Positions 582 to 7,331 of a stretch of 64,000 bases of DNA are shown one piece after another. The notes below the pieces were generated by a model. The model made no database searches. It was given only the letters and a program-made list of their open reading frames with translations, and was not told where the DNA came from. The DNA is taken from the NCBI GenBank assembly GCA_951406725.2, contig OX597835.1, positions 12,338,001 to 12,402,000 of the forward strand. Direction: 5' to 3'. How positions within the stretch are numbered: position 1 is the stretch's first letter; each line of letters starts with the position of its first letter. The DNA is from Octopus vulgaris (taxonomy: Eukaryota). The translations under genes and the position numbers were made by a program.

Positions 582-1031
582 GTAATCAGTATTTATATGT
601 ATGAATATAAGTTCGTAAGGATGTGTCTGTGCGTAAATGAAAGTATGTATGTATACATATATATATATATATATATATATATATATATATATATATATAT
701 ATATATATAACGTCGTAAGAAATTTGAAAAGCTAAACGCGAAACCGGTCTTTCTCCAAAACTATGTCATTGTAAGAAAAAAATTTTTAATATTCTTCAGA
801 CATATTGACGCAAATATATATATATTTTTTAACCTTTAAGCCTTCTGTAGTTTTTTTCACTTTTTACTATTTTCTCTCTCTCTCTCTCTCTCTATATATA
901 TATATATATATATATATATATATATATATATATACAGATAAGATAATTATTTTATTCTCAAACGCAAGATAATGCTAATAATATGACATGAACATGATAA
1001 ATCATCCCTATATTGTAGAAAAATCTGTCGG

Positions 1032-1104
1032 TGGTCAACCATGAGACTCGAACTCACATTCCTGTGATTACGCATCCAGTGCTTTACCATTAAACTAAAC
1101 TGAC
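1032..1104 (-). pseudogene. tRNA-like sequence (Thr-CGT-like), pseudo-tRNA or SINE head; left arm of an inverted pair
   Basis: 73 nt GTCAGTT-TA-GTTTAATGGTAAAGC-A-CTGGA TGCGTAA TCACAG-GAAT-GTGAG TTCGAGT CTCAT-GGTTGAC-CA. Cloverleaf-like with A and B boxes, but stems are imperfect. Confidence 0.55.
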
Positions 1105-1149
1105 AGCGATTTATATATATCCTTAATTTGCAGAAGAATTTGTCGTTGG

Positions 1150-1222
1150 GGCAGTTTAGCTTAATGGTAAAGCACTTGACGCGTCATCACAGGGATGTGA
1201 TCTCGAGTCTTATGGCTGGCCG
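1150..1222 (+). pseudogene. Second, more decayed tRNA-like copy (right arm of the inverted pair)
   Basis: Reverse-complement homology to 1032-1104; A box TAGCTTAATGG intact, B box mutated. Confidence 0.5.
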
Positions 1223-2131
1223 CCGACAGATTTTTCGACATAATATGGATAGCTTATCTTGTTAATGCTATATTATTAACATTATCCTGCGTTTGAGAAT
1301 AAAATTATTTCCTTGTCTGTATCTTTCAATACATCTCAACGCTTCTAAAGCAAACTTTGTTTGTTGACTTTCAAGGTAAGTCGAATTTAATAAATATATG
1401 TATGTATGTGTATATATATATATATGTGTGTGTGTGTGTGTGTGTGTGTGTGTATGTGTGTGTGTATGTGTGTGTGTATGTGTGTGTGTGTGTGTGTGTG
1501 TGTGTGTGTGAATTTGTTTTATGTATATATACTTATATTCACCCACGCACATATTTTCTTCATTTTTAAATACCTAACATGGTCGAGTCCATTAGAACGT
1601 ATGAGAGAGACTTCAGATGAGAAAATATCCCCGGCAGAAAATGCTTCCTTTAGACATAGGTGAAAATATATAATGGACTGTTAATGGCGCCACGTTCTTG
1701 TTCGTTAGAACACGCGCGTGTCTACGTTATTTATTTTTTTTTTTTCATCAGTTCGTTATCTACGAACGCCAAATTTAACAACGGCAAAGAAAGAATGCAG
1801 AAACGCGTACATCGCACGATCCAATGATCTCATTCACAGCCCATTCTGTGTTTCTACACGTGAACAGAGGAAAGATATCACCCCAGCACTATTTCCTCAG
1901 CGGAAGCTTTTCTCTCGTCTGAATGCACTCATACGTGTTAAATAAGACTTTACATGAATATATATTATTCTATGTTGCTTTCTTTGACATCATATGTGTA
2001 AGTGTATGTATGTATGCATGTATGTATGTATTAAGTATGTATGTATGTATGTATGTATGTATGTAGGTACGTATCTATATCTATATCTATATATATATAT
2101 ATATAATGCTAAATCTCAGAGCGAGTAACAC

Positions 2132-2391
2132 ATCGTGACGCATATTTGCCATTTGAATATGGCTAACCCTTAAGGGTGGATGCTACTGTAGTTTGTAGCC
2201 CCAGAAAGATATCTCCTCCAGCTGGCTATAGACACACTATCTGTATTTGTGAAGGGGAGTCACAAATACTGAGAGGACACAGATAGTGTGTCTATAGCCA
2301 GCTGGAGGAGATATCTTCCTGGGGCTACAAACTACAGTAGCATCCACCCTTAAGGGTTAGCCATATTCAAATGGCAAATATGCGTCACGAT
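2132..2391. repeat. Foldback element with 113-bp near-perfect inverted arms
   Basis: 2132-2244 is the reverse complement of 2279-2391 (one mismatch seen); flanked by (TA)n. Confidence 0.85.
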
Positions 2392-2586
2392 ATATATATA
2401 TATATATATATATATATATATATATATATATATATATATATATATATTATAATTTAGGGCATCTAAGAGATACCACCACGCTTGAAATAGCAGCCAAAAT
2501 TTGACTCTAAAACTACATTAAAAGTTCATACGGCACCAGGAGAGAAGGTAAAAAGACAAAATAAACTAGCAAAAACTTATTGGATA

Positions 2587-2644
2587 ATTCTAGATCCCGG
2601 ATTTCTGACTTTGCATAAGAAATGCTTTGCTTCATCAGTGTAAT
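2587..2644 (-). ncRNA. Degenerate type-I hammerhead ribozyme motif
   Basis: ATTACA-CTGATGA-AGC aaa GCAT ttctt ATGC aaa GTC-a-GAAA-TCCGGG-ATC-TAGAAT; inverted partner at 3371-3432. Confidence 0.5.
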
Positions 2645-4412: not shown

Positions 4413-5780
4413 AAGATACGCAACTACATGCATACGCCCACGCACAAACACCCACCCTACACACACACACACGCACACACACACACACACACACACACAC
4501 ACACACACACACATATATATATATATATATATATTTTACTTTACCCTATTTTTATAAATTATTATTTCAAATATACCGTTAATGGTCTTTTTACATGCCG
4601 AACATTGCTCGGTCGAATTAATTAATAATTAATTAATTCTACCCTTTTTTATTGACAATATATATATATATATATATATATATATATATATTAAGTATTC
4701 GGACGTTGTGTGTGTTTATTGAGCGAAAACACCTAAAGCTCCACGAGGCTCCGACAGGGGGTGGTGGCGACCCTGTTGTACTTTTTCGCCCCAACTTTCT
4801 CTCACTATTTCTTCCTGTTTCTTGAGTAACGCTGCGATGGACTGGCGTCTATATTACGCCATAGAAACCGGAAAACCGGGCCCGTTATCCTGGCTAGGCT
4901 TGAAAAGGGCACATAAATACATACATACATATATATATATATATATATATATATATATATATATATATATATATATATATATATATATATATATATAAGG
5001 ATGTTGCATAAAACGTCAAAAATATATATATATCCACAGTAATTAAAACCTCAATTAATAGCAAATCGTTAAATTCCAACACGTTAAAAGATTGCAATAA
5101 ACCCATTGCAAAGGTCTAGAATGAAATGCATACATCCTAATTTATTTGCCTTCAATAGATATTCCATTTTTGTTTCAATAGATATTCCTTTTTGGGGTTT
5201 TTTTCCGAATATATATACATGCAGTTTGGTGGTCAAATACATTTTCACCCTTCGGATGAATTTCGGAAACAACGGTTCCGCTTCTACTGACTGACCCACC
5301 ACCAGCATACAAGATGAACCGTTTTATTATATGCAGCTCTGCACATTTTTATCCATGTTTATTAGCCTCTTCTTTCTCTATTTCTTCTTTTTTCCTTTTT
5401 CTCCCTTATCTACTTCTTTTTCTTCTTTCTTTCTTCAACTTCACTTTCGTCTCTCTCTCTGCTCGTTTTCCTCTTCCTCCTCCTCCTCCTCTTTATCTTT
5501 CCTATTCTTATGCGTATCCATATTTCAAAAGCCTGATATTTATTCTATCGGTCACTTTTACCGAATCGCTACGTTGCGGAAACGTAAACAAACCAATACC
5601 GGTTGTCAAGAGGTTGTAAAACACACACACACGCGGATTTTATCTACCCCACTTACTCATCCCACATCCACACTTTCAATTTCTTAATTTTTTTTTGTTT
5701 TGTTTTTTGGTTTCCTCCCGATATGTTTCCTAACAACAAAGTCTCAAGGACGCAACAATGTAAAAACACACCTTCGATGC

Positions 5781-5900
5781 AAGTCTGATGAAGTGCCTCT
5801 CTCTCATGTCTAAAACCTCAAATATTACGTGATTTTTCATTTAGAATTTTCGTGTAAACTGACGTTGCAAATGGAGATGCGACGGAAACAACTGTAACTT
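5781..5900 (+). ncRNA. Type-I hammerhead motif with long stem II
   Basis: AAGT-CTGATGA-(about 93 nt)-GAAA-CAACTG-TA-ACTT: 4-bp stem I, near-palindromic stem III, GUA site. Confidence 0.55.
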
Positions 5901-6177
5901 AATATTAAAGATGTGTTAAAGAATTTTCCTTGTCTTCATCTTCTTTTCACTTTTCATTGTATCTGTGTATATATGCGTATATATATATATATATTTGATT
6001 TGATTTGAAAACCCCACTGGAATGGGAGAAAGCGCTAATAATCCGAATGATATGATCTGAATGATATGATATATATATGTAAAAAATGTAATATATAAAT
6101 AAATATCTATAAATATGAACCATCCGATCTTCTGATTACCTCATTTCTTCTAATATATATATATATATAGTCCTTGG

Positions 6178-6261
6178 CTTTCTGCTGAAGAGGCAACGCC
6201 AGTCGTAAATATATTTATTTTATTTACGAAAGATTGCCGAAACTATGCATAGTCCAGAAAG
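6178..6261 (+). ncRNA. Canonical type-I hammerhead ribozyme
   Basis: CTTTCTG-CTGAAGA-GGCAA..TCGTAAATA/TATTTACGA..TTGCC-GAAA-CTATGCATAG-TC-CAGAAAG: perfect 7-bp stem I, G-C-closed stem II, palindromic stem III, GUC site. Confidence 0.88.
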
Positions 6262-6486
6262 GATAGGGTAAACGTTTTTATTTCTCTTTCCATTTCAGAA
6301 TTACAACTATTAGTGGTTTGGAGTTTAACTGCTCTTTCTAGTGATTCTAGTGAGTCGCATGTCCTATTATGGCCATCCCTTATATGTTTGAATATATATA
6401 TATATATATATATATATATATATATATATATATATATATATATATATATATATCATCAAAATAAGCAACAAGGATATCCAGAGGTA

Positions 6487-6576
6487 ATGCAGTACGACCG
6501 TTTCATGCGACTCCATTTAACTGAACAATGCAAATATTACAACAGTTTTAAAATGTAGACCAATCTTCAGCTGCAT
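6487..6576 (-). ncRNA. Type-I hammerhead motif with long stem II
   Basis: ATGCAG-CTGAAGA-(long imperfect stem II)-GAAA-CGGTCG-TA-CTGCAT: perfect 6-bp stem I, GUA site. Confidence 0.72.
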
Positions 6577-7331
6577 AAAAATATAGAATTTAGTTAAATT
6601 CAAAGTATTCATTTGTATAGTTATTCTATTACCAAAATCACAAAGAGGATAAATAAATAGACAAAGGACATGTTTCATTAACAACATCATAGTTGTAACA
6701 CACACACACACACACACACACACACACACACATATATATATATATATATATATATATATATATATATATATATATGTATATATGTATGTATGTATGTATG
6801 TATACTTCTAATATAAGGATAAAAGTTTTCAAAAAAACCATATCAGTGGCTTGCATATTAAAATACCTTTTAGGGTGAAAATTATAAACAATTATAAATA
6901 AGGTCAAAAGATTATCTTTTTCTTTTGCCCTCATTTATTATTGTATATGTGTATGTATAAGTATATGTGTATATATATGTACATATGTATATGTGTATAT
7001 ACATATATATATATATATATATATATATATATATAGTTTGATTTGAAAACCCCACTAGAATGGGAGAAAGCGCTAATACATGATCTAAGTTATATGATAT
7101 ATAAAAAATGTAATATACAAATAAATATCTGTAAATATAAACCATCCGATTTTCTGAGTACCTCATTTCTTCTAATATATATATATATGTATATATATAT
7201 ATATATATATATATATATATATATATATATATATATATATATATATATATATATATATATATATATATATATATATATATATATATGTATGTATGTATGT
7301 ATGTATGTATGTATGTATGTATGTATGTATG

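Follow-up and report, generated by a model that had tools for sequence, protein, structure and literature searches.

Minimal hammerhead ribozymes (min-HHR) have been described in metazoan Penelope-like elements (PLEs) where they have a type-I topology with a short palindromic helix III, occur as thousands of truncated solo copies in many families, and form opposite-strand pairs 100-700 bp apart, in one case with a helix I of 2 bp (PMC4209133, Cervera & De la Pena 2014). In the Neptune and Nematis PLEs, a reverse transcriptase (RT) precedes a GIY-YIG endonuclease, with a Cys-rich linker, and the insertions show an inverted 5'-truncated copy, a tail at one end, a bias toward microsatellites and a hammerhead near the 3' end (PMC8557442, Craig et al. 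2021). The Poseidon element PAc of Anolis, acting on AT-rich DNA in vitro, cuts both strands and extends each of them; its tail is delimited by two RT start sites, and its hammerhead mutants still insert (PMC11167929, Frangieh et al. 2024). Animal retrozymes without long terminal repeats (non-LTR retrozymes) are non-coding repeats whose units measure a few hundred bp and contain a type-I hammerhead; they have been proposed to depend on PLEs (PMC7229834; Li, Clavereau & Pollet 2026, 10.64898/2026.07.22.740005), and reach up to 120,000 copies in the 28-Gb axolotl genome (PMC7229834). Here we compare these systems with a dense cluster of hammerhead-shaped motifs at positions 700-7180 of a 64,000-nt stretch of the Octopus vulgaris genome (OX597835.1:12,338,001-12,402,000, hereafter the window; the genome spans 2.8 Gb in 227 contigs).

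Hammerhead motifs of the cluster

Ten motifs, contributed by eight insertions of seven families (A-G), make up the cluster. To judge from sequence comparison, these insertions very probably all have type-I hammerhead 3' ends, with four of the families being tails of PLEs and all having been placed in (TA)n tracts by PLE target-primed reverse transcription. The features, in window coordinates, are:

708..872 (+): family A, putative 5'-truncated 3' end of an RT+GIY-YIG PLE; hammerhead 717-755 with a U3-A8 core (724-730), one additional U ahead of the core and a 2-bp stem II; stem III is ACCGGU and the cut is predicted after 749.
2453..2800 (-): left arm of a family C insertion arranged head to head, junction position approximate; hammerhead (2587-) with core 2638-2632 and two mismatches in stem I, which is paired in the family; contains the TA tract internal to family C.
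2801..3418 (+): right arm of the same C insertion, split by B; hammerhead (3371+) with core 3377-3383, ending inside stem III and lacking the stem-I 3' strand.
3100..3290 (+): family B head-to-head insertion, putative 3' end of a PLE whose 3' untranslated region (UTR) is long and rich in microsatellites; the left arm (3100-3155) has its hammerhead on the minus strand, with the core at 3151-3145; the right arm (3156-3290) bears a core at 3160-3166, a cut predicted after 3198 and a tail of ~70 nt; position 10.1/11.1 is U·U.
5225..5965 (+): family F, older copy (best relatives 81-87% identical), ends approximate; core 5785-5791, with a long stem II region and ACAACUGU as stem III; the cut is predicted after 5896.
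5996..6152 (+): family E, young (98-100%), putative 3' end of an RT+GIY-YIG element; U3-A8 core 6005-6011, a C·A mismatch followed by a 4-bp stem II, stem III AGCGCU, weak stem I of 2 bp with 4 more past a bulge.
6168..6395 (+): family D, part of a 455-bp non-coding circularly permuted unit; best-formed hammerhead of the cluster, having 7 bp in stem I, 5 bp including G10.1-C11.1 in stem II and ACUAUGCAUAGU as stem III; the core is at 6185-6191 and the cut is predicted after 6254.
6455..6697 (-): family G, putative end of a ~2-kb 3' UTR behind a GIY-YIG ORF (open reading frame); core 6570-6564, U·U at 10.1/11.1, predicted cut after 6493; stem III ACGGUCGU in this copy and ACGAUCGU in the family version.
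7036..7174 (+): diverged family E relative (83% identity), U3-A8 core 7043-7049.
644..7335 (no strand): (TA)n, (CA)n and (TATG)n tracts between the insertions, presumed target sites; 18 tracts of (TA)6+ lie in 600-7300.

An earlier reading of the letters (the sequence-only reading) had named seven motifs, together with a truncated half and two decayed copies. The seven motifs are real, and five of them (3107-, 3154+, 5781+, 6178+, 6487-) pass the strict descriptor given below, which 2587- and 3371+ fail. Their carriers are not independent: 3107- and 3154+ are a single B insertion nested in the internal TA tract of the single C head-to-head insertion (2453-3418) that bears 2587- and 3371+. The supposed 5'-truncated half at 740-749 belongs to a complete motif (core UUGAAAA at 724-730, stem I 717-722/750-755), and the copy near 6000 is intact rather than decayed (40 scored copies, itself included, are 98-100% identical with the same U3-A8 core); the one at 7040 is indeed a divergent relative. 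Nor are the carriers 100-250 bp long by nature, being really 5'-truncated ends of longer units.

A relaxed descriptor, with no requirement on stem II, gave 6 matches in 710-7180, one of them (799-) chance-like, as compared with 0.077 in microsatellite-preserving dinucleotide shuffles (n = 300), none of which reached 6; the equal density in shuffled sequence that would have spoken against the motifs was thus absent. Under the strict descriptor, stem I must have 4 or more Watson-Crick pairs and stem II 2 or more pairs, each side of stem II being allowed one unpaired base; stem III must be palindromic or form 4 pairs, and the core must be C3-G8 or U3-A8. This descriptor found 6 matches in 700-7180 (A, both B arms, F, D and G), where ~0.33 were expected from 60 evenly spaced genome samples of 10 kb each (600 kb), and none in the remainder of the window. 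Because it was tuned on the cluster motifs, this count is not blind; shuffle and genome controls were run under identical rules. A still earlier descriptor, requiring 2 bp at the base of stem II, recovered only one cluster motif and was dropped as too strict. Hammerhead-shaped motifs in the cluster far exceed chance.

The core stands in type-I order in all families (C3-G8 in B, C, D, F and G; U3-A8 in A and E), and stem III is palindromic or nearly so in all except B, which has a 3-bp stem with an 8-nt loop, so that the palindromy claimed earlier holds for most families and fails for that one. Stem covariation, which the sequence-only reading had asked for within families, is present in the G superfamily and between D subfamilies, in which stems I and II change in step. 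In 14 G-superfamily rows, picked from 32 distinct copies to span the subfamilies, 88.5% of cells in stems I-III are paired, and double-sided changes number 29 as against 10.6 in shuffles (0/500) and 0-4 in slid registers; the number of further pair types is not above shuffles (75/500). These patterns argue that selection keeps the hammerhead fold in the master lineages; they say nothing for the activity of the present copies. Position 10.1/11.1 in the same rows is G-C in 3, G-U in 1 and U·U in 10. Across the cluster families, A and D have G10.1-C11.1, B and G have U·U, and C, E and F have another mismatch or an extra base. Minimum-free-energy folding recovered the hammerhead for B and D only, as expected for weak motifs, and is no evidence against the others.

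The octopus motifs share the traits listed above for min-HHR, and the U3-A8 core of A and E (UUGAAAA) likewise occurs in Cercyon of Schistosoma (PMC4209133). They differ from the min-HHR of that description at the highly conserved G10.1-C11.1 pair, fixed as U·U in B, G and several G relatives, and in the long helix II inserts of several motifs. The likeness to Neptune and Nematis extends to every feature given in the opening, whereas the octopus tails are longer (~70-90 nt versus 30-40 bp) and the 3' UTRs of B and G reach 2-3 kb, unlike those described for the two clades (PMC8557442). As for PAc, we infer the same cutting and extension of both strands in the octopus, and two start sites would define the tail here too; the PAc hammerhead overlaps the ORF start, whereas the octopus hammerheads lie at element 3' ends (PMC11167929).

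Minimal hammerheads, U3-A8 cores, opposite-strand pairs, tails and TA bias have all been published for PLEs, and PMC4209133 and PMC8557442 already cover motifs, opposite-strand pairs, tails, microsatellite bias and non-autonomous partners. New here are the genome-wide motif estimate, the 18 families in 600 kb, and a U·U that takes the place of G10.1-C11.1 in several families; the estimate, this U·U and the PLE-type footprint seen in C and D are the points of most interest. The literature searched, PMC4209133 among it, yielded no U·U at 10.1/11.1; the search turned up no publication on hammerheads of octopus or cephalopod genomes, and ribozymes go unmentioned in the main text of a 2026 octopus repeat annotation. 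In itself the cluster is ordinary, known Penelope biology, and its value is as a resource: the genome holds many families, young and old, whose cores vary naturally (U3-A8; U·U at 10.1/11.1) and could be assayed directly. PLE hammerhead variants have reportedly been studied by Lünse et al., and these may already include the core variants seen here.

Reading frames, TA flanks and family structure

For each carrier, 40 genomic candidates were scored and 20-30 loci kept. All seven families are dispersed repeats, with identities ranging from 98-100% (B, E) to 81-87% (F). Upstream DNA of more than 1.3 kb is common to copies in A, E and G, and nine loci of these families were extended upstream for an ORF search. 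In A, PLE protein matches lie upstream on the same strand in 11/20 loci (1.5-kb flanks); two loci (L208, L209) have a broken RT/GIY-YIG ORF in front of A and an inverted A copy ahead of it, the ORF of L209 matching RVT_1 (E 5e-8). An E-linked ORF (L213) contains RVT_1 (6e-10) and GIY-YIG (8e-6), and the DNA downstream of it, which matches two further loci (L214, L215), runs into E. The end of a GIY-YIG ORF (L212) is followed by a 2-kb non-coding stretch common to three loci and then by G; endonucleases of this type gave 10,908 first-look candidates in the genome. Finally, 3/8 extended B loci (L333, L334, L335) have an ORF with GIY-YIG-type motifs between two B arms, one with a tail and one without, and an RT motif in L334 and L335; a fourth (L338) holds a nested family-E-type ORF.

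An ORF with RT and then GIY-YIG upstream of the hammerhead end was recognised by Pfam and tblastn in A and E, and by motifs and mutual similarity in B and G. These reading frames identify the carriers of A, E, B and G as PLE tail ends. The linkage anticipated by the sequence-only reading was therefore found for A, E and B (RT and GIY-YIG) and for G (GIY-YIG), and not for C, D and F; its claim of many distinct Penelope-like or retrozyme-type families is borne out by these four, three with RT, and by the 18 families among 30 strict matches in 600 kb. The A and E ORFs have DKG and a CX4-5CX2C linker, those of B and G a CxC-type linker and YRDD; from such motifs we take A and E to be Neptune-like and B and G Nematis-like. 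The closest named relatives of an element protein include bivalve proteins. Weak Pfam matches to SIR2, VtrA_C and CopN fell below cut-off and were disregarded.

The statement that carriers adjoin (TA)n held well. Among 170 copies scored, 18 had no located 3' end, and in 123/152 of the others the end adjoined (TA)4+, against a background of 7.7% (A 9/18, B 29/30, C 13/21, D 26/28, E 25/25, F 6/12, G 15/18). The UTRs of B-linked elements (L333-L335, L339), 2-3 kb long, consist mostly of their own microsatellites, so that these elements may carry future target sites with them.

Family B is the most informative on how copies arise. Its pattern gave 3,385 matches as compared with 241 in the control, corresponding to ~3,100 arms. 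In copies selected by the tail alone, an inverted 5' arm was present in 28/30; the junction-spanning strings of these copies were of 25 distinct kinds, 7 of them with exactly the apex seen in the window. Subfamily variants are mirrored on both arms, and the outer ends carry additional TTTA repeats. Among the first 100 listed rows, inspected by eye, arms continued past the predicted cut site in 96/97 family rows. A search of sequencing runs listed no RNA source for B; contigs from four runs, RNA by guess only, include B in three and count neither for nor against expression. We rejected the idea that B is a new non-autonomous 190-bp hairpin copied whole with ribozymes of two polarities, because the junctions are variable, both arms mirror the same variants and a PLE ORF is reached in the longer copies. 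In 11 B-type pattern matches (L297-L307), one arm stops at stem I beside the predicted cut site, a pattern confounded by stem-I microhomology. The tail of these matches can be on either arm, most having one common tail variant, and two of them (L300/L301, G000:C17:54186400-54186760) are identical units in direct tandem separated by (TA)34.

Families C and D consist of non-coding units of 483 and 455 bp, respectively, that are circularly permuted and loop back on themselves, with one type-I hammerhead per unit in head-to-tail order; one locus (L370) holds two tandem D hammerheads, and exact two-core D matches number 5 genome-wide. D shows partial tandems and two different 3' ends. Such units fit the animal non-LTR retrozymes, except that most C and D copies are either truncated monomers or pairs arranged head to head, lie in TA and have PLE-type tails, whereas the retrozymes form long arrays (PMC7229834, 10.64898/2026.07.22.740005), of which none was seen for C or D in the loci fetched. 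The three longest C/D copies start ~6-19 nt past the upstream cut site. In D, word pairs just upstream of the cut site occur as often as those just downstream of it (5 vs 5), so no hard 5' boundary lies at the cut; the notion that the cut sets the 5' end of inserted copies is unsupported. We regard C and D as probable passengers of the PLE machinery, non-coding and retrozyme-like.

Mechanism and rival explanations

In the mechanism we propose, the GIY-YIG endonuclease of the element would cut both strands within a TA tract, and each free 3' end would prime reverse transcription at one of two starts near the RNA 3' end, the stretch between them being the tail. Most cDNAs would stop early, depositing only the hammerhead-bearing end, and two cDNAs joined through short microhomologies would give a head-to-head pair with a tail on one arm. 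TA tracts left or carried by each insertion would offer new targets, hence the nesting of copies, as of B inside C. Two cDNAs per insertion, early stops and microhomology joining are suggested by the ORF links, head-to-head pairs, mirrored variants, variable junctions, TA flanks, TTTA repeats and the PAc results (PMC11167929). Inverted 5'-truncated copies, partial tandems and one-end tails were all found (the 28/30 B copies, L209, L335 and the D copies just described). Since nearly all B arms pass the cut site and the D cut is no hard boundary, uncleaved RNA appears to be the template in family B, and cleavage is likely dispensable for copying. A role for the ribozyme elsewhere in the element cycle, as proposed in the literature, is likely; the fold is probably retained for RNA processing, as dimers or with protein help, and the single genomic copies in the cluster are most likely inert passengers. 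With its ~3,100 near-identical arms, family B offers a census test of the two-start insertion model and of the purpose of PLE hammerheads.

If the carriers were instead independent short ribozyme SINEs (short interspersed elements) or retrozymes amplifying as cleaved circular RNA, with the cut as the core step, the non-coding, permuted and partly tandem C and D units, the well-formed D hammerhead, the starts just beyond the upstream cut in the three longest C/D copies and the 11 stem-I-ending B matches would find a ready place. As an account of all carriers this is improbable: A, B, E and G run on into ORFs, the D cut sets no hard boundary, long arrays are missing from the loci fetched, and the 11 matches, which stem-I microhomology explains as well, are a tiny fraction of the ~3,100 arms. 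Restricted to C and D, where it is compatible with PLE-driven insertion of the cluster, we regard it as evenly balanced. That the cluster was selected as a cis-acting RNA-processing array for the host gene with an exon at 3630-4412 has on its side a strict density ~18x the sample mean (6 vs 0.33) and the position of D, F and E in sense, 1.4-1.8 kb past the stop codon. It is nonetheless very improbable, given mixed orientations, ages from ~84% to 100% identity, apparent private changes relative to the families, some of them damaging (C arms, F), and a count inflated by nesting and by about twice the average number of TA tracts. Chance matching in AT-rich repeats is practically negligible as an explanation, even though several motifs pass under relaxed rules only and Rfam is silent on the window: no shuffle attained the cluster count, the 600-kb samples gave 30 strict matches versus 1.1 in shuffles and 0 in reversed sequence, and the stems covary. 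It is already refuted for A, B, D and G, the weakest case being E.

Several observations nevertheless count against insertion of all eight copies by PLE machinery. Rfam cmscan of the window (E<=1), the check proposed with the sequence-only reading, gave no hammerhead match, only microsatellite-driven miRNA matches and one tRNA-like match; no window motif reached the hammerhead gathering threshold, and RF00163 had 6 matches among 73 scored candidates genome-wide, Rfam models thus overlooking these motifs. B and G have U·U, and E and F other mismatches, at a position that is usually G-C, and stem I of E is weak. The covariation rows are related by descent, so their shuffle count is not a probability, and the family samples consist of best-scoring copies, biased to young, query-like ones. 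The B- and G-linked ORFs fall below Pfam detection of RVT_1 and GIY-YIG and were assigned by motifs and mutual similarity. No PLE protein was found within 1.5 kb upstream of C (0/25), D (0/30) or F (0/20), nor in sense at four extended F loci; dependence of C, D and F on PLE enzymes is therefore inferred. The apex variation of B could in part stem from later palindrome instability. Enrichment near TA is moderate, 46% of relaxed matches in the 60 samples lying within 200 bp of (TA)6 versus 28% at random, and it is absent in a further family, I, for which 7/7 sampled copies are more than 900 bp from any (TA)6.

Genome-wide load and other features of the window

In the 60 samples, the relaxed descriptor gave 52 matches as compared with 2-8 in shuffles; the 30 strict matches fell into 18 sequence clusters, with a maximum of 4 per sample. 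Extrapolated from these 600 kb, the genome would contain ~135,000 intact motifs (bootstrap 79,000-200,000); the 2,000-9,000 motifs per genome reported for min-HHR (PMC4209133) rest on different descriptors and are not strictly comparable. Copies of the window's nine families per 10 kb do not correlate with TA-tract number (Spearman 0.07, p = 0.57). The cluster, helped by ~2x TA-tract density and by nesting, is an upper-tail pile-up. The proposal of a TA "ribozyme sink" or new element class is accordingly not upheld, TA targeting having been published already and family I lying away from TA. Two random samples (L248, L263) hold further unrelated hammerhead families with U3-A8 cores.

A more far-reaching view, which we put forward tentatively and consider doubtful, is that this genome, with ~50 intact motifs per Mb contributed by dozens of PLE families, would have one of the densest hammerhead loads described, with active U·U variants and with C and D as retrozymes bearing a PLE footprint. 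If true, this footprint, with its two starts, head-to-head pairs and TA targets, would be direct genomic evidence on retrozyme mobilisation.

The sequence-only reading had also placed five motifs in Brr2 introns. Outside the cluster we found four motif-like sequences (15237-, a decayed one at ~29350-, 53120- and 53401+), none passing the strict descriptor. The first belongs to family H (15132-15249, -), with a C3-G8 core, stem III AGCGCU as in E and weak similarity to E (E=6e-4); a swap between C3-G8 and U3-A8 in related families is possible on this comparison. The last two form a head-to-head pair of family I (53049-53469) in a Brr2 intron, with a minimal hammerhead (extra A, G10.1-C11.1, stem III AACGUU). 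Brr2-type PWI and Sec63 exons lie at 28.7 and 54.7 kb.

Inside the cluster, the host exon at 3630-4412 (+) is Ser/Thr-rich, with a likely transmembrane segment at its end and no Pfam match. A head-to-head inverted element (920-1334; 183-nt arms, 82%) beside a TA tract includes a tRNA-like segment (1033-1104) that scores 34.6 bits with Rfam tRNA and is given no tRNA call by ARAGORN. Between TA tracts at 2132-2391 lies a near-perfect inverted pair (113-nt arms, 99%) in which no hammerhead core was seen; a related palindrome is found upstream of an E copy elsewhere (L131). A 63-bp GC-rich tandem array of ~23 copies occupies 34506-35930, with shorter relatives at 39.3 and 41.9 kb.

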